A stretch of DNA of 64,000 nt from an uncultured Bacilli bacterium (GTDB taxonomy: Bacteria > Bacillota_I > Bacilli_A > RF39 > UBA660). The stretch is from NCBI GenBank assembly GCA_934085595.1, contig CAKOHK010000006.1, positions 12,883 to 76,882 of the forward strand. The letters run 5' to 3'. Numbering within the stretch: the stretch's first letter is position 1; every line of letters begins with the position of its first letter. The translations under genes and the position numbers were made by a program. Of the stretch, positions 9,078 to 46,150 are shown in pieces. The notes under the pieces are model-generated. The model was not told the origin of the DNA. It saw only the letters and a program-made list of their open reading frames with translations, and ran no database searches.

Positions 9078-11054
<1,977 letters not shown>

Positions 11055-21459: not shown

Positions 21460-22842
21460 ATGTATAGAGTAGAAGATATAAGCGATATAACAAAAAAGTT
21501 TGGAGATTATATCGCATCATATATTAGTGAACTAGAAAGTAAATTAGAAAAAGTATCAAATACTAAGTTTTATGAGGATTTAAAAAATATATTAAAAACA
21601 TCAACTGACTTAGAAGATTTTTTACATATAGAAAAAGATATATTAAAAATAAACCCTTCTTTAAAAGGAATATTTGATATATTAAACTTTTACTATGAAA
21701 ACAACGCATCAAACGCACCACAAGCTAGAAAAGCAATAGAGAATCTTAAAAATAGTGGTTTACTATCAAAAATAGATGTACTTTCACAAAATACAGAAGA
21801 AAAGAGTAAATTAGAAGAAGAAATAAAAAAATGTAAAATGATTCTATCAAATAATATAACTGATTGGGATTATTATTTTGATTTAATTAAAAAAAGTGAT
21901 TTAACAGATGAAGAACAAATAGAGCTTTTATCTAAAATTGCTTATGAAAGCACTCTTGAAAAAGAAAAAGTAACTACAAAAGAAGATAAAAAAGAAGAAA
22001 AACCCGCAAAAGAATATGTAAGTACTGAAAAAATGGGAGTAGAACTTGAAAGATTAAGAGAATTAAATAGAAAAATAAATAATTATATAGCAAAATACAG
22101 TAGTTTAGTTAACAATAAAACTCCTAATCAAATAACAATGTATAAAGATGTTATTAACGCCCTAGGAACTAATTTATATGATGAAGTAGGAAACTACAAA
22201 GTAAAAGAAGAAGCAATAATTCTTTTAACATTTAGAGCTCAAGCCTTACAAGCTGATATAAGTTCTGTAGTATCTTCTCTTAAAAGTACATACGAAAAAG
22301 AAGATTTTGACATGTTAGAATTATATTTAGACGAACTATCTAAAATAGAAGATTTATTAAGTGGTTTAGACTCAGAAATAACAGAAGAAGAAAAAGAAGC
22401 AAATAGTAATGGTACAAAGAATGTAATATACTTAACAGATGAAAACAACAACCCATACTTTAGTTACTCAAACTTACAATTTGAACAAAAATTATCATAT
22501 AAAACTCTTCTTGAAAAAATAAGTAAAGGTTTATTTGACTACAAAAAACATAAAAATGGAGCAACAGTACTAGGTACAAAATCAAATAGAGTATATGTAA
22601 ATATCTCAGGAAGATATGGTTGTTCTTATGTAATATTAAATGATGAATACCTTCTAGTATTATCTCTAGCACCATATCAAAATGTTTATTCTGAAAGTTT
22701 AAAAATTGAATCACAAGAAGAAAAGAAAATTAAAGAATTAAAACAAAATCCAGAACTAGCTTATGACATTTTAATATCACAAAGTGATTTAAGAAATAAA
22801 ATCGAAGAAGAAATAAGCGAAGACAAAGGAGTAGTGCTATGA
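21460..22842 (+). CDS. Hypothetical helical protein; C-terminal ~90 aa with possible RelE/ParE-like fold
   Basis: The C-terminus ...HKNGATVLGTKSNRVYVNISGRYGCSYVILNDEYLLVLSLAPYQNVY resembles the RelE/ParE pattern (R..Y..RIG-DYRIIY...D..L.IGHR...Y). Its stop overlaps (ATGA) the start of an XRE HTH gene. Confidence 0.4.
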   Translation: MYRVEDISDITKKFGDYIASYISELESKLEKVSNTKFYEDLKNILKTSTDLEDFLHIEKDILKINPSLKGIFDILNFYYENNASNAPQARKAIENLKNSGLLSKIDVLSQNTEEKSKLEEEIKKCKMILSNNITDWDYYFDLIKKSDLTDEEQIELLSKIAYESTLEKEKVTTKEDKKEEKPAKEYVSTEKMGVELERLRELNRKINNYIAKYSSLVNNKTPNQITMYKDVINALGTNLYDEVGNYKVKEEAIILLTFRAQALQADISSVVSSLKSTYEKEDFDMLELYLDELSKIEDLLSGLDSEITEEEKEANSNGTKNVIYLTDENNNPYFSYSNLQFEQKLSYKTLLEKISKGLFDYKKHKNGATVLGTKSNRVYVNISGRYGCSYVILNDEYLLVLSLAPYQNVYSESLKIESQEEKKIKELKQNPELAYDILISQSDLRNKIEEEISEDKGVVL

Positions 22843-23033
22843 AAGATATAGATATAGTATTTAATAAATTAAAAAAAGAATGTATAGACATAATACTAAA
22901 GCAAAAAGTAAGCGCAGAAGAATTATCTTTCAGATTAGGATGTTCTCCTAGTATGTTAATAAGTTTATTAAAAGGCAAAAATGAAGATATATCAATATAT
23001 TTAAAACTATATGATGTATTGGTGAATTGGTAG
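22839..23033 (+). CDS. Small XRE-family helix-turn-helix protein
   Basis: ELSFRLGCSPSMLISLLKGKNED matches the HTH_XRE pattern. Translationally coupled to the upstream gene. Confidence 0.5.
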   Translation: MKDIDIVFNKLKKECIDIILKQKVSAEELSFRLGCSPSMLISLLKGKNEDISIYLKLYDVLVNW

Positions 23034-23040
23034 GTGAATT

Positions 23041-24888
23041 ATGACATTAACAGAAATAATAGAAGATAAGAAAAATGATTTATCAAAAGAAGTAAGTACA
23101 CTTGAAAGAGCTACTAAAGAATCACCAGAAGAAATAAGAAAATTAAAAGAAGAAATATATAAAGTAACAGAAATGTTAAATGTCCTACAAGATGATATAT
23201 ATAGAATAGAAGAACTAAATGAAGAAGATATATTAAATTACATAGATAACTTTGATGAAGAAATAAAAGAAAAAATAAGATTAATGAAAATAACAGCAAG
23301 AGCCGTAAAGAAAGGATTAGATGTTGATTTAACAACAGAAGAAAGAGCATTACTTCAAGATATAATATCACATCTTCAAACTAAAAAAGATGATTTAAAA
23401 GACTTCTTATCAAGTCTTACAAGTAAAGTAAGAGCCTATAATGACCTATACGAAAGAGCATATCTAAATTATCAAGAACTAGAAACTATATTAGAAAAAT
23501 TAAAAGATCCGAGTAATGGAGAAAAATTAACTGAAGCAGAGTTTAATATTTTATATTCAAACATTATTGAAGATACTTTTATAAGTAATGAAGTTAAAAA
23601 AGAACTATTAATTCAAATAAAACTATACAATTTAAACGGAAAAAGAAAAACAGAAGTATCAGTAAAAAAAGCAAGTTTTGAAGAAATACAAGACTTATTA
23701 AGAGAATATAATGTACAAGATAAAACTATTAAAAGAGCTTCTTCATTTAAATCAGAATTAACTAGTAATATAAACATTAATAATGCAAGAGAAATCTTAG
23801 ATTTTATGTCAAGTACAAAAATAGATGGAAATATAAAACTATTATCTAAGTTTACAAGTGAAGCACTTTTAGCCATACTATCATATGGAACTTTGAGTAG
23901 TGTTAAAAATAGATTTGAAGTTCTAGAAAGAGAATCTCTACTTAATGATTTCTTCTTTGATACTCCAAGTGTGTGGATAGACAATTTAAAAATCAAAAAA
24001 ACAAGACAAAGAAATAATAAAGATAAAGAAACATTATCTTCAGTTAGAACTTTAAATTACTTTGCACACGTTTCTTCTTATGAAGATATAATGGCAAACT
24101 ATGAATATCTAAAAGGAGAAGGAGTAGACATTAGTTTCAAAGACGCTATAAGTAAAAGAATACTAACTATGAATAGTGAAACAATAAAAAGAAATACAAA
24201 AATAATTAATTTCTATGGACTATCTAAAGTACCAACGTTATATTTAATATCTTACCTTGATGAAAAATGTGATAAGTTCTCTGAATTAGAATTATTAAGC
24301 GGACCAGAAGCTAAGCATAAAATATATTCAAATGCAGTAGCCACTTTCCCAACAATACTAGCAAAAACACCAGAAGAAATATTTATGCTCCTTTATAAAG
24401 AAAAAAGAGCGTTAAGTAAAAATGATTTCTATAGAAGAATATTTTCTGAATCAAGACAAGGTAATTTTAAGACATATTTAACAAGAGATAAATTAGGTTA
24501 TAAATTAAAAACAAGTCAAGACATAGAAACATTCTTTGCTTCAGAGTTTATAGACCAAAGTCAAGAGATACCAGATTATATAGCATATGCAAAAGCATTA
24601 AGTGAAAACAAGAGCTTTGAATATGACAAGAATATATTATTACTACCAGAAATAATAGAACTAGAAGGTTATAAAGATGAAAATAATTCACTTATATATA
24701 GATTTGGAAGTGAAGCAATTTCAGTACATAAAGTATTATCAAACTATAGTGCTCTTCAAAAATCAGGCATACCACTTGATAAAAAAGCATTAATGTTCTG
24801 TATTTGTGAAGGAAGTTATTTAAACGAAGAAGCATTTAACATGATATCAGATATTATAGGTTTTAAAGAAGAAAGGAATCTAAACTAA
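23041..24888 (+). CDS. Hypothetical 615-aa protein, N-terminal coiled-coil
   Basis: Long ORF, operon-internal, no recognisable domain. Confidence 0.45.
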   Translation: MTLTEIIEDKKNDLSKEVSTLERATKESPEEIRKLKEEIYKVTEMLNVLQDDIYRIEELNEEDILNYIDNFDEEIKEKIRLMKITARAVKKGLDVDLTTEERALLQDIISHLQTKKDDLKDFLSSLTSKVRAYNDLYERAYLNYQELETILEKLKDPSNGEKLTEAEFNILYSNIIEDTFISNEVKKELLIQIKLYNLNGKRKTEVSVKKASFEEIQDLLREYNVQDKTIKRASSFKSELTSNININNAREILDFMSSTKIDGNIKLLSKFTSEALLAILSYGTLSSVKNRFEVLERESLLNDFFFDTPSVWIDNLKIKKTRQRNNKDKETLSSVRTLNYFAHVSSYEDIMANYEYLKGEGVDISFKDAISKRILTMNSETIKRNTKIINFYGLSKVPTLYLISYLDEKCDKFSELELLSGPEAKHKIYSNAVATFPTILAKTPEEIFMLLYKEKRALSKNDFYRRIFSESRQGNFKTYLTRDKLGYKLKTSQDIETFFASEFIDQSQEIPDYIAYAKALSENKSFEYDKNILLLPEIIELEGYKDENNSLIYRFGSEAISVHKVLSNYSALQKSGIPLDKKALMFCICEGSYLNEEAFNMISDIIGFKEERNLN

Positions 24889-25130
24889 TGGACTTTTTAA
24901 AAGAATATGGACTAACAAATGAAGACGTAGAAAACTTAGAAATTAACTTAGAAAATGACGACATTAACTTTATTTGTATGCATGAAGAAGAAATGAAAGA
25001 AATAATAGAATATTTTATATCTAAAGGACTTAATAAAGACGATATAATAGAACTATTAATATATAAAACAGAATTATTTTATGAAACAAAAGATAAAGTA
25101 AAAGAAATATACGAAACTAATGATAATTAA
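24888..25130 (+). CDS. Small acidic hypothetical protein
   Basis: Translationally coupled (ATGA overlap) to the upstream gene, followed by a strong terminator. Confidence 0.4.
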   Translation: MDFLKEYGLTNEDVENLEINLENDDINFICMHEEEMKEIIEYFISKGLNKDDIIELLIYKTELFYETKDKVKEIYETNDN

Positions 25131-25142
25131 AATAAGTATTAA

Positions 25143-25170
25143 AAGGTGATTTTCATCACCTTTTTATTAT
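25143..25170 (+). terminator. Rho-independent terminator (AAAGGTGAT-tttc-ATCACCTTT + T-run)
   Basis: Perfect 9-bp stem read directly. The ORF-track start of the 25146 ORF lies inside this hairpin and is therefore not the real start. Confidence 0.7.
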
Positions 25171-25187
25171 GGAAAAGTACAAATAAA

Positions 25188-25216
25188 TTGACTTTTAGCC
25201 ACTTTTGCAGTATAAT
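25188..25216 (+). promoter_or_regulatory. Consensus sigma-A promoter TTGACT-17-TATAAT
   Basis: TTGACT 25188-25193, 17-nt spacer, TATAAT 25211-25216; followed by RBS AAAAGGGG and ATG 25248. Confidence 0.65.
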
Positions 25217-25247
25217 AACAAAGCAAATTGAAAAAGGGGTTAGGGTT

Positions 25248-26498
25248 ATGAAATATTATAGTGTGGATAAAGAATTAAATGAAATATATAATATATCAAG
25301 AATCTCAAGTATAAAAATAAGTGATTCTACAAATGCTAGTTCTAAAGTAGTAATTCCAGTAGTGACAATAACTTATTATGATGAAGACAATAACGAAAAA
25401 ATCATGGTTTATTATGGAACAGATAAATATTTTGATATATTAATAAAGAAAATAACTGAAGTTTATAATAATGAAGTAGGAAAAGAAGTTTTACCAAACC
25501 TAAGTCCATTTAGAAAAGAAACTTTAGTTATAGATGAAAACACAAAAGATATACTTTTAAAAGGAAACTTAGAGTTCCAAAGAGATTTATTTAAACAATA
25601 TAATGATATGAATTATTATAATAGAAGTATTTTAAGAAGTAATAATAAACTAGAGTTTTATTTACAAATAGCACTTTATCATCTAAATCAATTCTTAAAA
25701 AATACAGATGCTAACATAACATTTGGAAATAATTTAAGAGGCTATAAAGAAAATAATGTAATAATTGGTATTAAAAATGGTCATGCTACATATTTTCCAG
25801 TTATATTTTATGAACCAGAAAATAATAAAGCTGTACTAGAGATAGGTAACATATTTGATGTAATATCACCAGTTAAAATATTAATAGAGTTTAAAAATAA
25901 TGGCGTTATGGTTACCATAACAAATAAAGAACATAATTTAGAATTATTCTCATCATACACTATAGATAAAGAAGAATTAGAAGAAGAACATTATACATAC
26001 ATAAATGGAGAAATAAGTTCATTTTATAGAAATAAACATCAAAAACAAGATGGAAAGTATCCACTTCCATGGAATGCATATTTACAAGAAACTAAAAATG
26101 TAGAACCTTTAGAAGATGGATTTATCACAGAAAGTATATTTAGATATTATAGTGAAACCGAAGACAGATTCTTAGAAAAAGAGTTTTATTCTAAATATTA
26201 TAGTAAGAGTGCATATAACAGAGAATATACATTAAATGAATATATAAGGACAAGAGTGTCACAAGTATTAAATCATCAAGAAAATGTACATGTAATCGAA
26301 ACATATTTCCATAACGCTTTATATAGTAATGAGTTTTATAGAGATATGTTAAGAAATAAATATTTCTATCATCTATACAAAGGTGACATTCACGATATAG
26401 ATGAAATAAGTACTATAGGCTATTATGATAAAGATTCAAGATATGAAACAGATATCAAAAATAGTAGTGTAGCACTAAAATTAATAGGGGGTAATTAA
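25248..26498 (+). CDS. Hypothetical 417-aa protein, first gene of AAA_5 operon
   Basis: Start reassigned to ATG 25248 (MKYYSVDKE) downstream of the promoter and RBS. No domain recognised. Confidence 0.5.
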   Translation: MKYYSVDKELNEIYNISRISSIKISDSTNASSKVVIPVVTITYYDEDNNEKIMVYYGTDKYFDILIKKITEVYNNEVGKEVLPNLSPFRKETLVIDENTKDILLKGNLEFQRDLFKQYNDMNYYNRSILRSNNKLEFYLQIALYHLNQFLKNTDANITFGNNLRGYKENNVIIGIKNGHATYFPVIFYEPENNKAVLEIGNIFDVISPVKILIEFKNNGVMVTITNKEHNLELFSSYTIDKEELEEEHYTYINGEISSFYRNKHQKQDGKYPLPWNAYLQETKNVEPLEDGFITESIFRYYSETEDRFLEKEFYSKYYSKSAYNREYTLNEYIRTRVSQVLNHQENVHVIETYFHNALYSNEFYRDMLRNKYFYHLYKGDIHDIDEISTIGYYDKDSRYETDIKNSSVALKLIGGN

Positions 26499-26499
26499 A

Positions 26500-28686
26500 A
26501 TGGGTATATTTAGTGAACAAACAAGAATAGATAGTTTAATTAAAATAGCAAGATTAATAAATACAAATTACGAAAAAGAGGGTGAAGTATTAGAATACTT
26601 ATCAAAACTACAAAAAGGAAAAATAAATAATGATTTTATTGATGATGATATATTAGAGGCATGTATAAAGTCATACTTAAATGCTAAAGATAGTACTGTG
26701 AGTTTTGACGAGTTAAAAGAAACTATAAAGTTTATGCTTCCATATGCTGAAGAAACAGAAGACTTTGAAAGTATAAAATCTATGATATTAAGAAGTTCAG
26801 ACTTAATAGTATATGATAAAGACTTAGTTAATACAAAATTATATATGTTATTTAACGATAAGATTTTATATACACAGTTTATGAGAATATTAAAAAGAAC
26901 AGGTATTTTAGAAAATAAAATAATATATAGAAACTTAGTTGATTATGCATGTAATATTGCACCTTTATGTATGAACTCAAGTGAGTTTTCTAATGAACTT
27001 ATTTCTTATGTAAATGATATTCAAAAAGAACTAGGTAGTTTAGATGAAGCCAAATTAAAAGATTATAATGTTAAAAGATTAGTAGAAATGAAAAAAAGAC
27101 GTGGCATTTATCCACTTGATGAAACAACATTACTTGAAATAAGTTCTATGCTAGATAGAGTACAAAGAATCTCTTCTACCTTTGAAGATATTGAAACAAG
27201 AGTAAAAAAATATGAAGAACAAATTAGCCTAATAACAGCAAGAGGTATTGAAAAAATAGATAATGAAGCAGCAGATAAAATTAGAAAACTAGCCTCAGAC
27301 ATAGAAGAAGTAAAAGCTGATTTGATAAAAAGAGTAGATGATTATGTTCTACTATTAAAACAAGCAATGAAAAAAACAAGTGACGAAGTTTTAGCAAAAG
27401 TACTTGAAGAAGCATCAGAAACATTAAATAAAATTAAAGTACAAGCAAAAGAGATAACAGTTATTTCAAATAACGATTTAGTTCGTATGAAAAAACAAAA
27501 AGATGAAATAGTAGAAGAAATTAAAAGTAGTCCAGAACTAAGAAATATGTTGACAGAAGAAGATCTATCAAGCAAATTAAAAGAAGTTCTTAAAGGAGTT
27601 AAAAATGGAGATATAAGTAATGCACCAGTAGCAAGTAGTGAAGTTATAATTCCATCTACTCCATATATAATAGTTCCAGAAGAAAAGATAGACTACACTA
27701 TATTAAAAGCATTCGATGAAAGCATTCCTTATTCTGAAAGAATAGGAATGATAAAAGACGAAATGTCTACAAGACAAAGAAATGGAGAAAGATTCCATAG
27801 AAAAACACTTGAAATAGCGGGAGCTTTAATCGAGGGGGATTGGCCTTATGTATATGGTCCATCTGGAATGGGCAAGAGTTACTGTATAGAACAAGCAGCA
27901 GAACTACTTGGTATGAAAAGCATAGATAATGGTAAGATAACAGATAAATATAGCATTATGGCATATAATGACCCACACGGAAGATTTAGAGTTACACCTA
28001 CATATAATGCAGTCGCTTTTGGAAAACTACTTACACTTGATGAGTTTGATAATGGTAACACTGATAGTTTCATAATATATAATAATATCTATTCTAATTT
28101 ATTAAGCACTCTTGAAACTGGTAAAGCAAGATATATTACATTCGGAGAAAATGTACAAACTCGTGTTCATCCAAACTTCAGGATGATATCAGCAGGAAAT
28201 ACAGATGGAGAAGGTGAAAACGAAGCATATTCAGATAGACATAAAATAGACGAATCAGTAATTGAAAGAATGGTGCCAATATATTTTGATTATGATAATG
28301 AAGTAGAAAAAACTATATTAGGTGATTATAAAGCATGGTACGATATAATAGTTAAGTTTAGAAGTGCATGTATGGCTTATTCTAATTCTACTGGAGTGTA
28401 TGCAAAAGGTATAATTACCACAAGAGATGCATCTTTAATATCAAAATATATAAGACATAATAGTAAAACAGTAGATGAAGTGTTATCACAAAAGTTTGTA
28501 CAAATAAAAGATGAAGCATATCTAAATGCAATAGCACAAGAATTAAGAAAATACTATGGTTTAACTGATAGTAGAATAATAGATTTAGATATGTCAAATA
28601 CAAGACTTGATAGTATAAAAGATCCAAAAGCCATCGCAAAGAAATTAATATGTAAATGTGAGGGAAGACATAATGCAAGATGGTAA
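26500..28686 (+). CDS. AAA_5 / McrB-MoxR-like AAA+ ATPase with ~430-aa coiled-coil N-terminal extension
   Basis: C-terminal Walker A YGPSGMGKSY; LDEFDNGNTDSFIIYNNIYSNL (Walker B / sensor region, compare McrB IDEINRANLSKVFGEVMMLME); VHPNFRMISAGNTDGEG...RHKIDESVIERMVPIYFDY (compare McrB VPENVYIIGLMNTADRS...ALRRRFSFIEI). Confidence 0.65.
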   Translation: MGIFSEQTRIDSLIKIARLINTNYEKEGEVLEYLSKLQKGKINNDFIDDDILEACIKSYLNAKDSTVSFDELKETIKFMLPYAEETEDFESIKSMILRSSDLIVYDKDLVNTKLYMLFNDKILYTQFMRILKRTGILENKIIYRNLVDYACNIAPLCMNSSEFSNELISYVNDIQKELGSLDEAKLKDYNVKRLVEMKKRRGIYPLDETTLLEISSMLDRVQRISSTFEDIETRVKKYEEQISLITARGIEKIDNEAADKIRKLASDIEEVKADLIKRVDDYVLLLKQAMKKTSDEVLAKVLEEASETLNKIKVQAKEITVISNNDLVRMKKQKDEIVEEIKSSPELRNMLTEEDLSSKLKEVLKGVKNGDISNAPVASSEVIIPSTPYIIVPEEKIDYTILKAFDESIPYSERIGMIKDEMSTRQRNGERFHRKTLEIAGALIEGDWPYVYGPSGMGKSYCIEQAAELLGMKSIDNGKITDKYSIMAYNDPHGRFRVTPTYNAVAFGKLLTLDEFDNGNTDSFIIYNNIYSNLLSTLETGKARYITFGENVQTRVHPNFRMISAGNTDGEGENEAYSDRHKIDESVIERMVPIYFDYDNEVEKTILGDYKAWYDIIVKFRSACMAYSNSTGVYAKGIITTRDASLISKYIRHNSKTVDEVLSQKFVQIKDEAYLNAIAQELRKYYGLTDSRIIDLDMSNTRLDSIKDPKAIAKKLICKCEGRHNARW

Positions 28687-29620
28687 AAGTAATATAACTA
28701 GATATCCTTATAATATATTTTCACCAGTGAAAATATTAGATGATAGTTATATTCTTTATCCTGCAAAGTTTAAAGGCTTAAAAGATTTATATACTTTCTT
28801 AAAATCAAATCCTGAAATAAATAGTGCTGTATTTAAAGATCCTCATAGTCAAAGGGTAAGTGAAAGTGATTCATTCTATGGCGTATCTTATGAAGAAAGT
28901 TTAGAAAGATTGATTCATGATGACCCTCAAAACTATAGATTATTTGCAGAACTTAATAAAGAATATGTAGGTGCTGGTAAAGTGGTAACTCATAGATATA
29001 AAACAGTAAACACCCTAGCAGGAGGACATATAGATCCAGTTTTATACTCAAAAGGTTCACCATTATGTTATGAAACACAAGAAGTAATAGTTGCACCTAG
29101 ATACATAACAGCACATGTAGGTATTTCTACATCATATAAAACAACAGATGCTCAAATATACAATAAAGCAATATCAGTAATTAATATAGTTTATGCACTT
29201 CAAAAATATGGATATAAAATAAAATTAGATTCTTATGTTAGAGTAAAATGTAAAAATGAAATAATACAAATAATAATAGATTTAAAAGAAAGAAATGGTA
29301 GATTAAATATAAATGATTTATATGAAGCTACATGCAACAAAGAGTTTTATAGAAGAATAATATTTAGAGTAATAGAAAGTATGTCTGTAGAAGATACACG
29401 TTGGCCTACTATATATGGTTCAGAATTCTCTGGCTCAATAGTTAAAAATGATAAAGATTTATATTTTGCTTCTCCTATGGAAATGGGTCTTACAGGTGAA
29501 GATTTATATGAAGATTTTAGAAGAGTTTTAGCTTATATGCACTTAGAAGATTATATTGATGTACCAAGAGTAGAAAAAGATTTTAAAGAGAAGAGCACTA
29601 AACTAAAATTACAGTTATAA
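28673..29620 (+). CDS. Hypothetical 315-aa protein, last gene of AAA_5 operon
   Basis: Likely start ATG 28673 (MQDGKSNIT) with RBS GAGGGAAG; the track start 28658 is in the same frame. A bidirectional terminator (aaaaaacgattt/aaatcgtttttt) is near 29625-29660. Confidence 0.45.
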   Translation: MQDGKSNITRYPYNIFSPVKILDDSYILYPAKFKGLKDLYTFLKSNPEINSAVFKDPHSQRVSESDSFYGVSYEESLERLIHDDPQNYRLFAELNKEYVGAGKVVTHRYKTVNTLAGGHIDPVLYSKGSPLCYETQEVIVAPRYITAHVGISTSYKTTDAQIYNKAISVINIVYALQKYGYKIKLDSYVRVKCKNEIIQIIIDLKERNGRLNINDLYEATCNKEFYRRIIFRVIESMSVEDTRWPTIYGSEFSGSIVKNDKDLYFASPMEMGLTGEDLYEDFRRVLAYMHLEDYIDVPRVEKDFKEKSTKLKLQL

Positions 29621-29654
29621 TTAAAAAAAACGATTTAAATCGTTTTTTATTTTT

Positions 29655-30101
29655 TTAAAAGAACTTTTGATATTCACTTCCATCAGGTCTCTTACAAGTA
29701 TGAGTACTATAAGTATATACTGAACCAGGAACTGATTTTTCACATTCGTATTTTAATATATAGTTTTTTTCTATAGGTAATACTAAAAATACAAATATTA
29801 AAGCAGCAATAGTATAAGTAACAAGTCCAAATATTGATGCTTCTAAAGCTCCATGTGCTTTATTAGGAAAATCTTTTTTACTCATAAAGTAATAAGCAAT
29901 ACCAAAAGGTGGTACTAATAAAGAACCTGCAGCCATACCCTTAGTTGTTTTATCATATGAATCATTACTATATGTTTTAACTACTTCCTTATTTTCTTCT
30001 TTAGCAATTTCCTCTTCTGGTTGTACTGAAGTTTCTTTGTTGCAATAAGGACACACTTTATCATTATCATTTATTTCATTTCCACAATTTAAACAAAACA
30101 T
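29655..30101 (-). CDS. Zinc-ribbon domain membrane protein
   Basis: N-terminus CLNCGNEI...CPYCNK zinc ribbon; C-terminal hydrophobic segments. Confidence 0.5.
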   Translation of the reverse strand: MFCLNCGNEINDNDKVCPYCNKETSVQPEEEIAKEENKEVVKTYSNDSYDKTTKGMAAGSLLVPPFGIAYYFMSKKDFPNKAHGALEASIFGLVTYTIAALIFVFLVLPIEKNYILKYECEKSVPGSVYTYSTHTCKRPDGSEYQKFF

Positions 30102-30137
30102 TTTATCATCTACTTTCTATAAAAAGAATACCACAAA

Positions 30138-32108
30138 TTATTTATCATTGTCAATTGATTTAAGTTCAAACATAATATCTCTAAGTTCAGTAGCTCTTTC
30201 AAAATCAAGCTTACTCGCAGCTTCTCTCATTTCTTTCTCAATACGGCTAACCATTTCGTTAATTTCTTTCTTAGAATATTTTGGCTTTTTAGTCTTTTCT
30301 TCACTTATTTCAGTACTAATTACATCTTTAATTTCTTTAACTATTGTTTTAGGAACAATACCATGCTCTTTATTATATGCCTCTTGTATACTTCTTCTTC
30401 TATTAGTTTCTTTAATAGCTTTATCCATCGCATCACTAATATAATCAGCATACATTATTACATGCCCATTTTCATTACGCGCAGCTCTTCCTATAGTTTG
30501 AATTAAACTTCTATCACTACGTAAGAACCCTTGCTTATCAGCATCCATAATACATATAAGTGATACTTCAGGAATATCTATACCTTCACGAAGTAAATTA
30601 ATACCAACTATAACATCTATTTTACCAAGCCTAAGATTTCTAATAATATTAAGTCTCTCAAGAGTTTTAATTTCATTATGCAAATAAGTAACTTTATACC
30701 CAAGTTCTTTTAAATAACTAGTAAGTTCTTCACTCATTCTAATAGTTAAAGTGGTTATAAGAACCCTCTCATTCCTTTCAATTCTCTTATTTATTTCATT
30801 CACTATATCATCTACTTGATTCTTAATTGGCTTAACTTCAATGGTAGGATCTAATAATCCAGTAGGTCTAATTATCTGTTCAGTACATTTTTTTACAAGA
30901 GATAATTCGTAATCACCAGGAGTAGCAGATATATATATTGTTTGATTCAGTTTTTCATTAAACTCCTCAAACTTTAAAGGTCTATTGTCAAGCGCACTTG
31001 GTAATCTAAATCCATAATCAACAAGAGTTTGTTTTCTCATTCTATCCCCATTATACATAGCTCTTACTTGAGGTATAGTTACATGGCTCTCATCAATAAC
31101 AAGTAAAAAATCATCAGGAAAGAAATCAATTAAAGTAGTTGGTGTTTCACCTTTATCTCTTAAAGACATATGTCTACTATAATTCTCAATACCATGACAA
31201 AATCCAGTTTCACTAAGCATCTCTATATCATACATAGTTCTTTCTTTAAGCCTTTGTTCTTCAAGTAATTTTCCTTCATCATGTAACTCTTTAAGCCTAA
31301 TATCAAGTTCATTTTTAATTCTCTTAATTGCCTCTTTAAGTTTTTCATCACTTGTAACAAATAATGAAGCAGGGAATATACTTGTAGTTCTAAGATTACT
31401 GATAACATGACCAGTTAAAGGATCAAATGTACTAATTTTCTCTATCGTATCACCAAACATTTCTATTCTAATACCATTCTTTTTTTCATAAACAGGTATT
31501 AATTCAATCGTATCTCCCTTAACTCTAAATGTACCTCTTTTTAAATCAAAATCACTTCTCTCATACTGCATATTAATAAGTTTCTCTAAAATACTATCTC
31601 TCTCAATTTCATCATCAACACTTAAATTAAGCATCTTATTGATATATTCTTCTTTTTCACCAATACTATATATACATGATACAGAAGAAACAACAATAAC
31701 ATCTCTTCTATTAATTAATGCACTAACCGCAGCATGTCTAAGTTCATCTATCTCATCATTAATAGATGAATCTTTTTCTATATATAAGTCTTTACTTGGT
31801 ACATATGCTTCTGGCTGATAATAATCGTAGTAACTTACAAAGTATTCAACACGGTTATTAGGAAATAACTCTTTAAACTCACTATATAATTGACCCGCTA
31901 AAGTCTTATTATGTGCAAGTACTAAAGTAGGTTTATTAACCTTATTAATAACATTAGCAATTGTAAATGTCTTACCAGTACCAGTCGCACCAAGTAAAAC
32001 TTGACTCTTTAAATTATTATTAAGTCCACTCACAAGCTCATCTATAGCCTGTGGTTGATCCCCGCTAGGTTTATAATTAGAAACTAATTCAAACATAATG
32101 CCCTCCAT
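30138..32108 (-). CDS. uvrB: Excinuclease ABC subunit B
   Basis: [25 protein letters not shown] Walker A, helicase motifs and the C-terminal UvrB/UvrC interaction domain are all recognisable. The true start is possibly at MFELV, 12 nt downstream. Confidence 0.9.
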
Positions 32109-38747: not shown

Positions 38748-40367
38748 ATGAAAGGATATATAGTAATTAATTATATAAAAGATTCTTTATGTTATAACTT
38801 TAGAAAAATAACAAAAGAAGAAAAAAAATATGTAAATAGTAATTCTTTATATAAAGATAGTCTTTTTTATAGCTTAAATTACCTAAAAAAGAATATTAAT
38901 AAAATCTCTTCAACCATAAAAAATAACTTTAATGAAATAAATTATTTTATAGTAAGAACTACAGTAACATTTAAATATGTTAAAATGTTAATGGAAAAAC
39001 TATCATGTAATAAATTAAGGCTATTATTTGAATACTCTATATCAATAGAAGATTATAATTTATTATCAAGTATTAAAGATTTAAAAGAAATAGATGTATA
39101 CTTTATGCCTACATTTATTATAAATAGATTTGAATCATTAAATATAAAAGTAATAACACACTATACAAATAAAATATCATCAAAGTTTATGTTAGAACAA
39201 GATTCAATAGATTATGATACTTTATATTATAGAAAAAAATTATATATAACAGATGACTATGAAGAATTAGAAGAAGATATAAAAGAGTTCTTTAAAATAA
39301 ATTATTATTTAAAATCAATAGATTTATATTGTTTCGAAAAATCTATTATAGAAAAATTAGTTAAATTAATAACAGAAGATAACACTAAAAATATAGTTAT
39401 TTTAATGCATCAATATAGTGATAAAGGTAACTTTATAAAAACAAACTTTAAATATTTAAAAGATATTAATAAAAAGTGCAAAGAAAACTCTTTATGTGAG
39501 TTTAGAGTAGTATATTCAGAAGACTATTTAAGAAATAATTTATTTAAACAACTATCATATAATAATTTAAAATTAATGATGATAATGATTATATATCTAT
39601 GTGCTAGTACATTTATAATATCTTCTTCATTTAATGCAGTTAATTCACTAAATGCAGATAAATTAAAACATGAAATAATAGAAAATGAAAACAATGATAC
39701 AAAAACCGAGCCATCAGAAGATAATAAAAATGAATTAACAGATAATGATATAGTACTTGATAATAAAGAAGAAGAACAAGTAAAAAGATCTAAATATGAT
39801 TTAGAAAATATAATGGATAATCTTTTAAAAATAAATAATGAAACTGTAGGATACTTAGTAGTAAAAAATACTAATATATCTTATCCAGTAGTTAAACACA
39901 CAGATAATAGTTATTATTTAAAAAGAGACTTCTATAAGAAAAAAACAAGTATGGGATGGGTATTCTTAGACTATAGAAATAGTAAAGATAAGTTTGATGA
40001 TAATAATGTAATATATGCTCATAGTATGAAAAATGGTACGATGTTTGGTACACTTAAAAAAGTAATAGAAAGTAGTTATAGAAGTAATAGTGAAAATATG
40101 ATTATTTCATATGATACATTATTTGGAAAATATAAGTTTAAAATATTCTCAGTATATAAAGTAGATTATACAACAGATTATTTAAAAACTAACTTTGATA
40201 GTGAAAAAGACTTTAATGAATTTGTAAAATTAATTAAATCTCGTAGTGTATTTAAATCAAAAGATAAAGTAAAATATGGAGATAAAATATTAACGCTATC
40301 AACATGTACAGGAAATAACAATAGAAGACTAGTAGTACATGCAGTACTTATAAAGGAGGAAAAGTGA
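38748..40367 (+). CDS. srtB: Class B sortase with ~330-aa N-terminal cytoplasmic extension and one TM helix
   Basis: The C-terminal ~210 aa carry class B sortase motifs: NNETVGYLVVKNTNISYPVVKHTDNSYYLKRDF, MGWVFLDYRNS, NNVIYAHSMKNGTMFGTL (catalytic His), ILTLSTCTGNNNRRLVVHAVL (TLxTC catalytic Cys plus Arg). These are preceded by a TM helix (LKLMMIMIIYLCASTFIISSSF) and a 280-aa N-terminal domain of unknown function. Confidence 0.75.
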   Translation: MKGYIVINYIKDSLCYNFRKITKEEKKYVNSNSLYKDSLFYSLNYLKKNINKISSTIKNNFNEINYFIVRTTVTFKYVKMLMEKLSCNKLRLLFEYSISIEDYNLLSSIKDLKEIDVYFMPTFIINRFESLNIKVITHYTNKISSKFMLEQDSIDYDTLYYRKKLYITDDYEELEEDIKEFFKINYYLKSIDLYCFEKSIIEKLVKLITEDNTKNIVILMHQYSDKGNFIKTNFKYLKDINKKCKENSLCEFRVVYSEDYLRNNLFKQLSYNNLKLMMIMIIYLCASTFIISSSFNAVNSLNADKLKHEIIENENNDTKTEPSEDNKNELTDNDIVLDNKEEEQVKRSKYDLENIMDNLLKINNETVGYLVVKNTNISYPVVKHTDNSYYLKRDFYKKKTSMGWVFLDYRNSKDKFDDNNVIYAHSMKNGTMFGTLKKVIESSYRSNSENMIISYDTLFGKYKFKIFSVYKVDYTTDYLKTNFDSEKDFNEFVKLIKSRSVFKSKDKVKYGDKILTLSTCTGNNNRRLVVHAVLIKEEK

Positions 40368-41002: not shown

Positions 41003-41087
41003 TAGATTTACTTTATAGACAATATTACAATTTTCTTTTTAATATTAATAGTTAAATAAAGTTAATATCTATAATAAAGGAGTGTAT

Positions 41088-41750
41088 ATGAAGAAAATAA
41101 ATAAAATAATGCTCATAATATTAGGAATGTTAATAACTGTTAATGTAAAGGCAGTATGTCAAGATAATAAAATAAATGATTGGGCAGAAAGTTTAGAAAT
41201 AAAGTTTCAAGAAGTAAAAAATGAAGAATATCCATATTCATATTTATTAATGTTAAATAATCCAAGAGAAGATTTAAAAGTAATCGCAAAAGATACATAT
41301 AGTAATGGAGAATATAATGTAGAATATGATACAGACTTTAAAAACTATGTTATTGGAAGCGAAATACATTTTATAAAAAAAGAATATGAATTAAATATAT
41401 ATATGTCAGATAATGCATCTACTTGTGCAAAAGAATTAGTAAAAACTATTAAATATGCAGTACCAAAATATAATGAATATAATGATACATTATATTGTGA
41501 AGCTAATCCAGATGATAAAGAATGTGGAGCATACACAGATACAACAAAGAATGATAAAATGGATGATAAAGTAAAAGACTATTATGATAAACAAATAGAA
41601 AAAGAAGAAATAAGAAATCTACCTACAGGACAAAAAGTATTAAGATATATATTAGAATATGCTCCATATGTACTAGTACCACTAGTTATCCTAGTAACAG
41701 TATATCTAATAGTAATAAAAGTTATAAAGAAAAGAAGTGATGAAGAATGA
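41088..41750 (+). CDS. Small secreted protein with LPxTG-like C-terminal sorting signal (NLPTGQ + TM + KKRSDEE), cassette copy 1
   Basis: Signal peptide ...TVNVKA|VCQD. The C-terminus is RNLPTGQKVLRYILEYAPYVLVPLVILVTVYLIVIKVIKKRSDEE. The ATG 41088 start has RBS AAAGGAG; the track uses GTG 41082. Confidence 0.55.
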   Translation: MKKINKIMLIILGMLITVNVKAVCQDNKINDWAESLEIKFQEVKNEEYPYSYLLMLNNPREDLKVIAKDTYSNGEYNVEYDTDFKNYVIGSEIHFIKKEYELNIYMSDNASTCAKELVKTIKYAVPKYNEYNDTLYCEANPDDKECGAYTDTTKNDKMDDKVKDYYDKQIEKEEIRNLPTGQKVLRYILEYAPYVLVPLVILVTVYLIVIKVIKKRSDEE

Positions 41751-44700
41751 GAAAATTAAAATACCTATTCTTTAGTACATTAGTATTACTAACAAGTATA
41801 AGTACTACATTAGCCATTACTTCATCAGGACAAGTTCCAAATAGTGAAAAAGAAACAATATATCCAAGAGGATACACTACATCATGTAGACCAACTAGTT
41901 CATCAAAAGATGCGATTTATAGCTCAGTTGGAGGAGTACTTAGTGGATATATAGAAAATTCAAATATATATTATGATTCTAAAGTTTCCGATGAACTATA
42001 TACAGACGAAGTATATGCGGAAAGAGCATGTAATGAATATACAGGTTCAAGTGATAATAAAATCCACAATTATGTCTGTGATGGCACTAAACAAACTACT
42101 GGATATGCTTGCTACAAAGAAGGTAAAGTAACATTTGAAATAGATGGAAGAACCTATGAAAATATTGATGTTGATGGTGGAAGAATGTATCCCACAGAAT
42201 CTGATTGTAGTTCAAACTGTTCAGGTACATGTAAACTTCAACAAGGATATAAATATATTTATGGAAAGCAAACACAAACTGGTGAACTAAAAAATGGGAA
42301 AATAATTAATGTTGAAGGTATGCAATATCTTACTAAAAGTGGTGGAAATGCGTTTTGTATTCAGCCTATTTATTCAATGGGGTGCAATCCTGATGGTAGT
42401 CCAAATTATTGCTTAGATAGTCAATTTGATTTAAATACATGTAATAATGCTAAAGAATATAACAATGACTATAGATGTGGACTTGCACATATAGCACTTC
42501 ATGCAACAGAAGTCTTTTCTAAGAACGATAATAAGTTAGATGATAGAGAATATGCAATAGCGGATATAGCGATGAGAATGTATGCGGCATATAAAGGAAA
42601 ATTAAGAGGAACTGTTACATCAGGAGTACCAACAAAGCCAAAAGAGTATCTATATCAATATATATTCGCATTGACTGCTAAAAGAACAATAGCGGATTCC
42701 AATTATCAGAAAGATGGAATGATATGCAACTATGATGCGAATAATATAGGAGTATTATGTACGAATAATAATAACACTTTATACAAAGAAGCACTTAAAT
42801 TATTTATTAATGCTTATAATGCTAATAAACTAGATGCTAGCGGAAATAAAGTACCGGATTTAATAACAAAAAAGATAGATAATTCAACAGAAGAAATTGA
42901 AATAACAAAACCGTGTGAACCTGGTGAAAATGGATGTAAAATAAAAGTGACTCTTGTAACTGCCGATGGAAAAGTAGTAGACGAAGATGACAATGTAACA
43001 TGTTCAAAAAATATATGTACAGCAAAAATATCAGGAGAAAAAACCTGTGTAATCAAAGGTGGACAATCTTATCAAATAAGAGTACAAATAAGTAATTTTA
43101 CTGCAGAAGGTTCGATGAAAATATATCACGATTGTAAACATCCAAATAGTAATCAAATAATGTTCGTATTTGATGCGAAAGGAACCGAAACAGTTGATAC
43201 ATTTGAAAAGAAATACGAAATAAATGCAGTCTGTGAAGATACAACTTGTGATAATAAATCATTACAGACAAAAGTAACAAAAACAAATGCAAGTGGAACA
43301 AGTAACAATATCACATCATGTGATGGATATAGTGAAAATGCATATGGAAAAACGACAAAAGAAATTAATAGCAAATATTATGGAAAAGGAAATTATGATG
43401 GTTATGACAAAATAACTATCGCAGAACCTTCCCTTAAAGATATTTTAAATAATTGTGATAAAAGTTATTTTAGACAAACAAAATATGATCAGGGTGGTGG
43501 AGGATATTGTGAAGTTTACTGCCGTAAAGAAACTGTAATTTATATGGCAGATAAAACAAAAGTGTTCTCTGGAATGCAATTTCAGTATAAATTAGAAGAA
43601 AAAATACCAAATAGTAAAACGACAGATAATCATATAACTTCAATTGTTCAAGTAAAGCAAGAATGTGCATCAGTAATTCATTTTGATGAATGGTATGCAA
43701 AATTAGAAGAATTATTAAAAAATGTTGCAAATGCATGGAACGATTGGAAACATTATGAAGCAATGTATCTTCAAGAAATAGATAAATCTACGGATTATCC
43801 AGAGATCACATGGTATGACCCTCCTTGTACAGCTAACTGTGATGCTTTAAGTGGAAGCAAAACAATGAAAGATGCATGTAATGCTACAAAAGATTTAGAG
43901 GGAGAGTTCTCAACAGGTGGTCAAAAAATTAAAATAGAAGAAGCATGTAAAAATAGAGTAACATATGACCAGTCGACCGGAAGTGTTTGTAATCCAGGAT
44001 GTACATACATTATTAGTTGGTTGCAAAAAAATACCGAACATAACACATACACATATAATAATGGTGGTTCATTATCTAAAAAAGTAGATAAAAGTTCCGA
44101 AATAGATGGTAATTATGGAGGCTCAAGATTGAGCTGTACATATAATAGCGGAACATATAATTATACTTATAGTAGAGACAAAGACGGATCAATTTCATCT
44201 GGTTCAGGTGTGTTAGAAACAGGATTAACTCGTCCATCTAATAGAATTGAGTCATTAAACTATAAAAGTTTCTTAGGAAACGATCCGGATTATTACTATG
44301 GATACTCTAAAGAGCAATGTGAGAATGATGCAGCAAATAGTCTTGGACAAGCTCAATCACTAGCTGCATCAAGAGCATCTGCAGGAGACTATAATTATTG
44401 TGCAGATGTTAAGATATGCAAAAGAATGGTAAATAAAAAATTAGTGCAATATGAATGTGGATGTAACAGGTATACATGGCAAATTACTTCAATATCATCA
44501 ACAACATATAATAGAGGAACGTGCTCATATACTAGTGGTGGAACTTGCTCTCAAGGTAAAAATGCTGATCCTGACAAAGTAAAAAACGCAACACTTGCTA
44601 AAAGAAGTGCATATTTAGCAGCACAAGCAGCAGTACAACAACATTTAAAATATATTCAAAATTGTAACTTATATGGTGCAAATGATTGGGTACATGTTGA

Positions 44701-46150
44701 TTCAGCAATAAAAGATTATGTTTTAACTCTCGGAAGTACAGGATACCCTAGAGAATCTTCTGGAACTGGTGGATCTGGTGGATCTGGTGGCGGAGGTACT
44801 GGAAGTGGAGGAGATGGCACAGGCGGAGGTGGAAACACCGGAGGCGGTGGTGGAGATACAATATATATAACTAAACCTGGTCAGGAACAAACGGCAGCTA
44901 TGCCTGGATATGAAAATTTAAAAGCCACAAACGCTTTATCAACTACTAGCAAATATGCAACAATAAAATTAGCAACTGATAGTTCGTTGAGTACAATAAT
45001 AAAGAAAAATATATTATCAGATGCGAGTTGTCTAAGAACTGGAACATGTCCAGAATTAGATGTGGAATATGATGATATAGCTTACGGAAACACACAAAGA
45101 TATGATAGAACTGCTCATGTAGTAGATTCAGAAGATTTACCTAATAAATATTGTAAAGACGAAAAAGGACAAGACTGTGAATACAGTTACTCAGATATAG
45201 AAAAATGGGTTCCACTAATAGTTTGCGATAACAGCTCTGAAAAAGAAATAAACAAATATTGCTATATACCAAGTGATACAAAAGTACCAACAGCAAGAAG
45301 AGCCTATTTTACAACAACAACAGAACTTATGTATTATAGACCAAATGAATATTATACAGAAAATCATACTGGAAAAGTAATTGAAGTTAAAAGTAATACA
45401 AGGGTTGATTCAAATAAATATGCAATGCTTGGTAAAAACGTATATCCTATATCTAACGTAGATACTGGAATATACGGAATTAGATATCATTTTATAGGAA
45501 TTGGTAGTGGAAAGTTCTATAACATTTCTAAAAACAATAACACAGGATTAAAACTTAACAATTTTGATTATACATGTGCATATGAAGCGTATAATAACTC
45601 AAATAAATATGACTGTGATGGAAGCAGTTGCAATGGAAATGATAATACATGTGTAAGAGTAACTGAAACGGCTCCAAATCTATCAACAACAAAATGGGAT
45701 AAATTAACAGATAAAAAGAGTTATGGATTTATGTTCAAAAATACTGAACTATCAGATATTTTCAAAAATGAAAATAGAAAAATAGGAAATAACTGGAATA
45801 ATGAAAAAGCTCAAATAGCAAAACAAGAAATAGAAGAGTCGGCAACTGATATTTATACAAATAGTGAAAGATTAATGTTAAGTGTAACATTGTCAACAGA
45901 TGCAATTAAGAAAATTAGAGAATATAACGAATCAAGAGAAACAAATGCAGGAGGATATACAGATGATTCACTAATTAGTTGTGAACTTGCAAACGCTATA
46001 GATGGAGATGGAAAAGTGTTCAAAAACTGTAGAAGTGCATTTATAGATGAAATAAGTACAGGAAGTGGGGTACTTGGAATAAAATCAAATAGTGAAATTA
46101 TAAGGGGAGGAAAAGAAATAGGAAGTAGTAGCAAAGGAGGCAATAATTAG
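41747..46150 (+). CDS. Giant (1467 aa) cysteine-rich secreted protein, cassette copy 1
   Basis: Signal peptide MRKLKYLFFSTLVLLTSISTTLA. Dozens of Cys in paired patterns (CDGSSCNGNDNTC, CEPGENGCKIK, CSKNICTAKI). Gly-rich linker SGTGGSGGSGGGGTGSGGDGTGGGGNTGGGGGD. No C-terminal sorting signal. Confidence 0.6.
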   Translation: MRKLKYLFFSTLVLLTSISTTLAITSSGQVPNSEKETIYPRGYTTSCRPTSSSKDAIYSSVGGVLSGYIENSNIYYDSKVSDELYTDEVYAERACNEYTGSSDNKIHNYVCDGTKQTTGYACYKEGKVTFEIDGRTYENIDVDGGRMYPTESDCSSNCSGTCKLQQGYKYIYGKQTQTGELKNGKIINVEGMQYLTKSGGNAFCIQPIYSMGCNPDGSPNYCLDSQFDLNTCNNAKEYNNDYRCGLAHIALHATEVFSKNDNKLDDREYAIADIAMRMYAAYKGKLRGTVTSGVPTKPKEYLYQYIFALTAKRTIADSNYQKDGMICNYDANNIGVLCTNNNNTLYKEALKLFINAYNANKLDASGNKVPDLITKKIDNSTEEIEITKPCEPGENGCKIKVTLVTADGKVVDEDDNVTCSKNICTAKISGEKTCVIKGGQSYQIRVQISNFTAEGSMKIYHDCKHPNSNQIMFVFDAKGTETVDTFEKKYEINAVCEDTTCDNKSLQTKVTKTNASGTSNNITSCDGYSENAYGKTTKEINSKYYGKGNYDGYDKITIAEPSLKDILNNCDKSYFRQTKYDQGGGGYCEVYCRKETVIYMADKTKVFSGMQFQYKLEEKIPNSKTTDNHITSIVQVKQECASVIHFDEWYAKLEELLKNVANAWNDWKHYEAMYLQEIDKSTDYPEITWYDPPCTANCDALSGSKTMKDACNATKDLEGEFSTGGQKIKIEEACKNRVTYDQSTGSVCNPGCTYIISWLQKNTEHNTYTYNNGGSLSKKVDKSSEIDGNYGGSRLSCTYNSGTYNYTYSRDKDGSISSGSGVLETGLTRPSNRIESLNYKSFLGNDPDYYYGYSKEQCENDAANSLGQAQSLAASRASAGDYNYCADVKICKRMVNKKLVQYECGCNRYTWQITSISSTTYNRGTCSYTSGGTCSQGKNADPDKVKNATLAKRSAYLAAQAAVQQHLKYIQNCNLYGANDWVHVDSAIKDYVLTLGSTGYPRESSGTGGSGGSGGGGTGSGGDGTGGGGNTGGGGGDTIYITKPGQEQTAAMPGYENLKATNALSTTSKYATIKLATDSSLSTIIKKNILSDASCLRTGTCPELDVEYDDIAYGNTQRYDRTAHVVDSEDLPNKYCKDEKGQDCEYSYSDIEKWVPLIVCDNSSEKEINKYCYIPSDTKVPTARRAYFTTTTELMYYRPNEYYTENHTGKVIEVKSNTRVDSNKYAMLGKNVYPISNVDTGIYGIRYHFIGIGSGKFYNISKNNNTGLKLNNFDYTCAYEAYNNSNKYDCDGSSCNGNDNTCVRVTETAPNLSTTKWDKLTDKKSYGFMFKNTELSDIFKNENRKIGNNWNNEKAQIAKQEIEESATDIYTNSERLMLSVTLSTDAIKKIREYNESRETNAGGYTDDSLISCELANAIDGDGKVFKNCRSAFIDEISTGSGVLGIKSNSEIIRGGKEIGSSSKGGNN

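Follow-up and report, generated by a model that had tools for sequence, protein, structure and literature searches.

Insertion of iron into nitric oxide reductase is carried out by NorQ-NorD, a MoxR AAA+ ATPase with a VWA partner, and in the known MoxR/VWA systems the client is captured by the DxSxS motif of the MIDAS. An AAA_5 ring with a MIDAS domain is also found in midasin (Rea1), which removes ribosome assembly factors. The mechanics of NorQ-NorD, in which a VWA protein docks on a ring (PMC9976466, PMC13036017), are likely shared by the locus described here, and a two-gene arrangement of ATPase and partner, of the CobS-CobT kind, is also borne by phages (PMC8651126). In the MoxR-vWA-VMAP ternary systems the third protein carries a VMAP-C domain and effector domains are found on the vWA or VMAP component (PMC7159879), and the McrBC and CoCoNuT systems are recognised by an McrB GTPase with the signature Nx(x)D and by an McrC partner that combines DUF2357 and a PD-DxK nuclease (PMC11090510).

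The locus considered here lies in a window of 64,000 nucleotides from an uncultured Bacilli bacterium, and is a genuine, self-contained three-gene operon, as an earlier note on this DNA had described. Its elements follow one another in the order hairpin, sigma-70 promoter, gene A (416 aa; 25248..26498, + strand), gene B (728 aa; 26500..28686, + strand), gene C (315 aa; 28673..29620, + strand) and two-way hairpin, with B beginning 1 nt past the stop codon of A and C overlapping B by 14 nt. The layout from promoter to plausible bidirectional terminator around an AAA_5 ATPase was confirmed together with both hairpins; of the three tightly packed genes reported, the sizes of B and C stand, and only that of A, previously given as 417 aa, is corrected, its start codon being the one supported both by aligned homologues and by gene calls made independently.

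The upstream hairpin (25141..25164, both strands) has a 10-bp stem and folds on either strand (-10.4 kcal/mol, z = -3.2 on the + strand; -12.3 kcal/mol, z = -4.4 on the - strand), closing the upstream operon (21460-25130) and insulating the triad. The promoter TTGACT-17-TATAAT (25188..25216, + strand), said earlier to be perfect, is present and near-perfect, matching the consensus at 11 of 12 positions, and is the top site in the interval 24000-31000. That interval contains 48 promoter-like sites in total against 50.7 expected from shuffles, so a single site is in itself weak proof and it is the position upstream of A that counts. In 14 of 19 loci there is a site of at least 10/12 whose -10 box stops 19-31 nt short of gene A, and locus L026 has a weaker one (9/12, 41 nt before A); judged from these sites the promoter is conserved across loci, and expression of the three genes is probably constitutive. 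A ribosome-binding region (AAAGGGGTTAGGG; 25233..25246, + strand) precedes the ATG at 25248, and G-rich ribosome-binding regions stand at the equivalent place before gene A in homologous loci. Downstream, a hairpin made of an A-tract, stem and T-tract (29625..29648, both strands; -7.7 and -7.2 kcal/mol, z = -2.5 and -2.4) is common to C and the convergent gene 29655-30101 and is plausibly a two-way terminator, which the terminator scan missed because the stem is AT-rich.

Gene B joins a family-specific N-terminal extension of about 430 residues to an ATPase of the AAA_5 (MoxR/CobS) class. The extension, previously described as a coiled coil throughout, is so in part: residues ~165-345 (26993..27534, + strand) form a long, coiled-coil-like stretch of amphipathic helix into which aligned homologues have insertions of differing length, its sole matches being of apolipoprotein, keratin and spectrin type, whereas residues 1-160 constitute a conserved block without an assigned fold. 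Within the ATPase domain, G453, G456, G458 and K459 of the Walker A motif GPSGMGKS (residues 453-460; 27856..27879, + strand) are invariant in 40 homologues, as are E515, D517 and N518 of the Walker B motif LLTLDEFDN (residues 510-518; 28027..28053, + strand), where D514 is nearly so (at least 90%), and N567, R580, R590 and R642 further along; the catalytic motifs (Walker A, Walker B, sensor and arginine residues) are intact. B itself scores 17.3 bits against Pfam AAA_5, below the 22-bit cut-off, and AAA or AAA_5 is detected in 39-40 of the 40 homologues (PF07728 in 39); the CobS-like family phrog_249 matches B at E = 8e-23. Compared with the PDB, a profile of the ATPase domain retrieved midasin as its top-scoring relative (9e-43, summed over six AAA modules), followed by CobS (1.6e-11), CbbQ (5e-9) and NorQ (1.6e-4), as well as dynein, and no McrB chain is present among the best 60 matches listed. 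By these comparisons the ATPase belongs to the midasin/CobS/CbbQ/NorQ (AAA_5, MoxR/CobS) clade and not to that of McrB, so the likeness to MoxR noted earlier holds and the likeness to McrB does not. The window does contain a separate McrBC-like pair, at 3733-6349 and about 20 kb away, although B cannot be counted as a second such module within 30 kb.

Gene C had been regarded as lacking a recognisable family; it is a member of Pfam DUF7192 (PF23822; 51.2 bits against a cut-off of 27, E = 1.5e-13) and also matches phrog_1909. No paper mentioning DUF7192 was found in the literature. An exhaustive search with C returned 539 clusters at E <= 1e-3, and these matches served as the homologue set for its AF2 model (pLDDT 92.9); a single-sequence word-index search returned three near-identical proteins and no others. 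One further candidate homologue, P0190 (2521 aa), is a repetitive surface protein and was rejected as a false positive. The model comprises an N-terminal subdomain (~1-100) and a divergent VWA-like alpha/beta domain (~105-300), in which, from residue 143 onwards, the secondary-structure elements succeed one another as they do in the first half of a VWA domain. In Foldseek the four top-ranking chains are all NorD VWA, taken from NorQ-NorD complexes (E = 1.2e-4, probability 1.0), and below them come the VWA domains present in Ku, TRAP, factor B, integrins and collagen VI; the match is weak in extent, with a TM of only ~0.2 over ~150-230 aligned columns. The MIDAS motif (DxSxS...T...D) is absent from C, no conserved Asp occurs at the equivalent loop in 101 family members, and this loop (148-154) reads Y/N/H-x-N/S/G-L-S/A-Y-S. 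C is thus predicted to have a VWA-like fold closest to that of NorD and without the MIDAS metal site; it carries no extra or fused effector domain.

Gene A, always found upstream of B, represents an orphan family. Searches of A and 27 members of its family against Pfam, PHROGs, NCBIfam and PADLOC gave zero matches, profiles of the A and C families found nothing among PDB sequences, and a search with joined A and C sequences yielded two close A homologues and nothing else. The AF2 model of A (pLDDT 79.5, pTM 0.72), for which the homologue set consisted of ids from cluster look-ups, predicts an N-terminal alpha/beta part (1-150) followed by an up-and-down beta meander of ~14 strands (157-354), and has no significant structural match in the PDB or BFVD. 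Porins and fatty-acid-binding proteins were considered as relatives and rejected, being generic beta-meander matches with E > 0.005 in these two collections. A has no motif that looks catalytic, and constitutes a beta-rich protein family without detectable relatives.

The nearest relatives of the B ATPase and of C are phage genes without assigned function. In every bacterial and phage example checked, the ATPase gene adjoins a DUF7192 gene (the 18 Bacilli genomes, loci L026 and L027, Listeria phage P100, a prophage, Lactobacillus and Gordonia phages, and phage K), and the pairs ORF15-ORF14 of phage K, gp90-gp91 of P100, gp158-gp159 of A511 and those of the Lactobacillus and Gordonia phages are true homologues of the B ATPase and C, adjacent and in the same order. 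The phage version is shorter, without gene A and without the N-terminal 430 residues of B, its ATPases being annotated at ~190-400 aa, and no functional annotation accompanies the pairs in the records examined. In phages of hosts such as Listeria and Staphylococcus the pair sits among early and nucleotide-metabolism genes, and phage CS266P1 encodes a fusion of its ATPase to the first ~80 residues of DUF7192 (E = 1.8e-14).

In bacteria, A, B and C occur as one unit in 18 of 18 distinct genomes examined, all belonging to uncultured gut Bacilli of small genome size (RF39 and relatives), and these three are the only genes common to the 18 loci. The flanks consist of housekeeping genes in all loci and differ between genomes, though seven genomes have the triad at the same der...thrS position and in one sub-clade its neighbours include engB and der, which encode ribosome-assembly GTPases. 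None of the neighbouring ORFs in the window recurs beside the triad in another genome examined; in seven genomes a 622-aa gene lies ahead of the triad, and the upstream 615-aa ORF of the window was compared with it and is not its counterpart. Divergence of the triad correlates with that of ThrRS (r = 0.86-0.92), and although the rate of change in A and B is much higher than in ThrRS, a neighbouring lineage-specific gene diverges at least as fast as the triad. In GC and GC3 the triad agrees with the housekeeping genes of the window, the ORFs are intact in all genomes examined, with the B of the window identical on 18 contigs, and dN/dS values of 0.11-0.22 show all three genes to be under purifying selection. 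Neither the plasmid set nor the IMG/VR viral contigs, scanned with triad-type B, yielded the triad, and no phage or mobile-element genes adjoin it in the window. In the genomes examined, from a scan that covered 600 pattern matches, it appears to behave as a vertically inherited chromosomal locus, unlike island cargo.

Taken together, we favour, with a probability of roughly 60%, the reading that A, B and C make up a chromosomal three-part protein-remodelling machine of the MoxR-AAA+/VWA type, and one of a new subtype, with a lineage-specific role in assembly or maintenance favoured over immunity. By analogy with NorQD, CbbQO and CobST, B would form a hexameric ring on which C would dock, and ATP hydrolysis by B would pull on or twist C so that a bound client is remodelled. 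The N-terminal subdomain of C is a likely contact with the ATPase, because it is fused to an ATPase in one phage. Since C lacks the MIDAS, client capture probably takes place through the conserved K205/R227/R228/E235/Y248-G249 surface or through the lineage-specific parts, namely the 430-residue N-terminal arm of B and protein A; the latter is most likely an adaptor or the client itself. The flanks of the 18 loci contain no linked candidate client (cNOR, Rubisco, CobN/BchH, LdcI etc.).

Each of the described systems shares part of this design. As in NorQ-NorD, an AAA_5-clade ATPase gene lies beside that of a partner whose predicted fold best matches the NorD VWA, but here the partner lacks the MIDAS, no NorD-like linker or C-terminus was seen in it, cNOR is absent, B has its extra N-terminal arm and gene A is obligatory. 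The motors of CobS-CobT and BchI-BchD, with the phage CobS-like genes of phrog_249, are the nearest sequence relatives of the B ATPase, whereas the partner is DUF7192 in place of CobT and there is no CobN. Midasin is built on a like principle, with a motor, a long helical linker and a VWA-type domain, yet it is a single giant eukaryotic polypeptide with a true MIDAS, in contrast to three separate small proteins with none. RavA-ViaA likewise combines a MoxR ATPase bearing an additional client-binding arm with a VWA partner, but the sequence relation is limited to the AAA+ core, and the arm of B is N-terminal with no fold assigned. The MoxR-vWA-VMAP systems (Kaur et al. 2020, PMC7159879) also have three components, a MoxR-type ATPase and a vWA-type protein being joined by one that is specific to the system; however, C is free of fused effectors, the hosts are small-genome gut Bacilli as opposed to multicellular actinobacteria and cyanobacteria, and the 27 members of the A family, matching no Pfam family at all, therefore match none of the VMAP-related models.

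The existence of such ternary conflict systems (PMC7159879) is one reason to consider that the triad may be a defence or superinfection-exclusion module, domesticated from the phage ATPase and DUF7192 pair, in which A or the arm of B senses infection and the pair triggers the response. The B-C core is common to many phages, and its relatives there are of unassigned function, so a conflict-related role retains some probability; the fast divergence of A and B relative to ThrRS, the McrBC-like pair 20 kb away and the apparently constitutive expression would also fit. We nevertheless consider this doubtful, and the proposal of the earlier note that the operon is a candidate phage-defence module is unsupported. 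The PADLOC scan that it suggested gave no credible match, only coiled-coil noise for B (ZorA, LeoBC; E > 0.01) and nothing for A and C, and no nuclease, protease, TIR or membrane effector domain occurs in A, B or C. The same note had named two findings that would speak against defence, and both largely describe the triad: a MoxR-like ATPase with a VWA partner, as the clade of B and the NorD match of C indicate, and conservation like that of housekeeping genes, with presence in 18 of 18 genomes examined, housekeeping flanks at all loci, an identical position in seven, divergence that tracks ThrRS and does not exceed that of the neighbouring lineage-specific gene, native composition, low dN/dS and no occurrence on the plasmids or viral contigs searched.

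That phage homologues of the B ATPase domain and of C exist could also suggest a decaying prophage remnant or recently gained mobile cargo without host function, but with native GC and GC3, no adjacent phage or mobile-element genes, intact ORFs (and B identical on 18 contigs), purifying selection and a conserved promoter this is very improbable. Somewhat less remote, though still unlikely, is that the triad assists metal chelation or cofactor insertion in the manner of CobS-CobT or NorQ-NorD, which is what the PHROG label 'porphyrin biosynthesis' means; the top sequence matches of the B ATPase include phrog_249 and CobS, and NorD is the best structural match of C, against which stand the missing MIDAS, the lack of CobN/BchH, cNOR, Rubisco or another known client nearby in 18 genomes, the lack of any resemblance of A to CobN and the presence of the same pair among early and nucleotide-metabolism genes in Listeria and Staphylococcus phages. 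The label on the phage ATPase is probably the result of annotation transfer. As for a type IV restriction system resembling McrBC or CoCoNuT, in which the NTPase would be McrB-like and coiled-coil, the impression of an McrB-like ATPase in the earlier note, the weak AAA_5 match and the coiled-coil-like N-terminus of B are in keeping with it, CoCoNuT NTPases being McrB-like GTPases that also bear coiled coils (PMC11090510). It is hardly credible here: the partner is DUF7192 and not McrC, DUF2357 or PD-DxK, sensor 1 is not followed by a conserved Nx(x)D signature (consensus GNTSGEGEN, with only N567-T568 invariant), in the PDB the B ATPase comes closest to midasin, CobS, CbbQ and NorQ, and PADLOC found no McrB or McrC match.

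A bolder reading, which we put forward only tentatively, is that the triad is a new three-component AAA+ machine whose motor and VWA-like core were exchanged with phages and then fixed chromosomally in small-genome gut Bacilli, being either an uncatalogued anti-phage system or a split bacterial midasin that remodels a large cellular assembly, and that the fold of A is previously unseen.

In conclusion, this analysis defines a conserved and apparently constitutively expressed locus of three genes in uncultured gut Bacilli, one of which codes for a protein family without detectable relatives, and gives a structural and evolutionary frame for DUF7192. It also reframes hundreds of phage records (phage K, P100/A511 groups), in which an ATPase now labelled 'porphyrin biosynthesis' becomes one half of a couple formed by a MoxR-type ATPase and a putative VWA-like protein without the usual metal site. 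If a client is found, it would show how a MoxR/VWA machine works without a MIDAS, and why phages carry one.

The three-gene operon around an ATPase that the earlier note had described is present in the window, where a hairpin (25141-25164) 3' of the upstream operon is followed by a TTGACT-17-TATAAT promoter (25188-25216; score 11/12, the top site of the 7-kb region scanned), gene A (25248-26498, 416 aa), gene B (26500-28686, 728 aa), which starts 1 nt past the stop codon of A, gene C (28673-29620, 315 aa), which overlaps B by 14 nt, and an A-tract/stem/T-tract hairpin (29625-29648) common to the triad and the convergent gene. The same three genes appear in independent gene calls from human-gut metagenome contigs encoding an identical B protein. 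Since this DNA is AT-rich (window G+C 26.8%) and the scanned region holds 48 promoter-like sites against 50.7 expected, a single promoter-like match has little weight. The position of the promoter is conserved, with a site scoring at least 10/12 and ending 19-31 nt upstream of the A start in 14 of 19 homologous loci.

The surrounding genes in the window are ordinary chromosomal ones (gmk, ABC transporters, an LtaS-type sulfatase, uvrB, pcrA). The upstream operon (21460-25130) encodes four proteins (460, 64, 615 and 80 aa) without a family, the 64-aa one having a weak HTH_3 match and the other three looking coiled-coil-rich, and it was not found beside the triad in any other genome examined. 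At 7860-11036 two family-2 glycosyltransferases adjoin a protein with collagen-triple-helix repeats (10173-11036, minus strand), a grouping that recalls glycosylated collagen-like proteins of the surface or exosporium; GerA-type germination genes and cotE are present in a related genome (locus L003). A sortase-domain protein (38748-40367) lies directly upstream of a tandemly duplicated three-gene module (41082-46630 and 46787-52266) comprising a 222/232-aa protein, a secreted Cys-rich protein of 1467/1434 aa that falls into no Pfam family, and an ORF of 159 aa (DUF5411 at 46151-46630; twin at 51787-52266). The large twins are 55% identical overall, with the first ~29 residues identical and the last ~230 nearly so, a mosaic suggestive of gene conversion or of a middle part that varies.

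Homologues of B fall into 84 clusters, most near full length at 29-43% identity and all from metagenomes or MAGs, with 'Bacilli bacterium', 'Firmicutes bacterium' and Candidatus Coprovivens, which belongs to GTDB order RF39 (PMC8035907), as named sources. A, B and C are adjacent and in constant order in 18 of 18 distinct genomes (14 being GTDB species representatives), and they are the only genes common to all 18 loci, the flanks being housekeeping genes that depend on the genome: engB-der...thrS in seven genomes, and prs...sua5, the mraZ-rsmH-PBP cluster or femAB in others. In the loci L001, L005, L012, L013, L015, L019 and L024 the order is der, an unknown 622-aa protein, A-B-C and, further on, thrS, L019 ending before der is reached; engB lies 5' of der in both loci with gene calls (L001 and L005), which also have an EssC-like FtsK/SpoIIIE gene downstream, and L005 has a WXG100 gene upstream (type VII secretion).

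Pairwise divergence of the three proteins follows that of ThrRS (r = 0.86-0.92), as it does among themselves (0.91-0.98), and they evolve at about the rate of a neighbouring lineage-specific gene. Together with dN/dS values of 0.20-0.22 (A), 0.17-0.21 (B) and 0.11 (C), and with GC and GC3 that agree with the window's housekeeping genes, this points to functional genes that are vertically inherited. Searches of plasmids and of IMG/VR contigs did not turn up the triad.

B itself gives only sub-threshold AAA and AAA_5 matches in Pfam, one or the other being detected in 39-40 of 40 homologues, and it matches the phage 'CobS-like' family phrog_249 (8e-23). Walker A/B residues G453, G456, G458, K459, E515, D517 and N518 are invariant, D514 nearly so, and N567, R580, R590 and R642 are likewise invariant in the homologue alignment. 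An ATPase-domain profile that includes phage relatives matched midasin (9e-43, over its six modules), CobS (1.6e-11), CbbQ (5e-9), dynein and NorQ (1.6e-4) in the PDB, with no McrB chain among the 60 matches listed; as the family does not conserve the McrB signature Nx(x)D either, the McrB resemblance proposed earlier does not hold for B. The other McrB-like module mentioned in that note, at 3733-6349, is probably a McrBC-like restriction pair (a 501-aa protein with weak AAA_5 matches, then a 364-aa protein carrying the N-terminal domain of McrC, DUF2357), and is unrelated to the triad. No family was found for the N-terminal 430 residues of B, in which residues 1-160 form a conserved block and residues ~165-345 match only apolipoprotein, keratin and spectrin-type proteins, which indicates long amphipathic helices.

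C belongs to Pfam DUF7192 and phrog_1909, and an exhaustive search gave 539 homologous clusters (50% identity, E <= 1e-3). An AlphaFold model built from 101 of these sequences is confident (pLDDT 92.9, pTM 0.88), and its top four PDB matches are NorD VWA chains from NorQ-NorD complexes (E = 1.2e-4, probability 1.0), followed by VWA domains of Ku70/80, TRAP, factor B, integrins and collagen VI. Because TM-scores are low (about 0.2), the predicted fold is termed VWA-like rather than VWA proper. The MIDAS motif DxSxS is not conserved in the family, which instead conserves G117, G128, P130, E177, K205, R227, R228, F231, E235, Y248 and G249. Two independent lines, the sequence of B and the predicted fold of C, thus converge on a putative MoxR-AAA+/VWA-type couple.

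A short ATPase gene followed by a DUF7192 gene also occurs in Listeria phage P100 (gp90-gp91; L008 3785-5633), Staphylococcus phage K (ORF15-ORF14; L036 3753-5194; C-family profile E = 8e-62), Lactobacillus phage 3-521, Gordonia phage Octobien14 and a prophage, where the pair adjoins the integrase and repressor genes; 355 phage records match the ATPase alone. In contrast with the bacterial triad, the phages have no gene A and their ATPases lack the N-terminal arm of B. In Clostridium phage CS266P1 (L007 4782-5825) the ATPase bears the N-terminal ~80 residues of DUF7192 at its own N-terminus (E = 1.8e-14), a fusion which argues that the two proteins touch; a separate DUF7192 gene was not detected among the neighbouring genes. 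The K and P100 ATPases are of the AAA_5 class, and CobS is the probable source of their 'porphyrin biosynthesis' label. The annotated K ORF15 (194 aa) seems to lack 5' sequence, as the profile match continues upstream in frame. A more distant bacterial locus (L027 1152-4501) encodes an 811-aa AAA_5 ATPase and a DUF7192 protein, with no A detected; its ATPase N-terminal region is unrelated to that of B, so that the arm appears to be an exchangeable module.

A has no match in Pfam, PHROGs, NCBIfam or PADLOC, none of 27 family members matches Pfam, and tblastn found nothing in phages. Its model (pLDDT 79.5) starts with an alpha/beta part and continues with about 14 long antiparallel strands; neither the PDB nor BFVD gave a significant match to it. 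Most of the residues conserved in A are aromatic or hydrophobic, with no catalytic-looking motif among them.

The defence interpretation in the earlier note is not supported, and the evidence is against a catalogued defence system; the phage ancestry of the triad's core could speak for a role in conflict, which we consider unlikely. Evidence is also against a McrBC/CoCoNuT system, given the unconserved signature, a VMAP ternary system, given the A family's lack of Pfam matches, and a chelatase, since both CobN and MIDAS are absent. In the genomes examined, the triad's place on the chromosome, its vertical inheritance and its apparently constitutive expression favour a cellular function.

In known MoxR/VWA couples the VWA protein sits in or on the pore of a hexameric ring (PMC9976466, PMC13036017), and by analogy B would form a hexamer with C docked on it. 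Such a machine would act on a client, and, as C lacks a MIDAS and only the bacterial form has A and the arm, recognition of this client may fall to A together with the arm, or A may itself be the client. The triad is probably a MoxR/VWA variant not previously characterised, in which the partner has no MIDAS, the ATPase bears an N-terminal arm and an orphan protein is a third, obligatory subunit.
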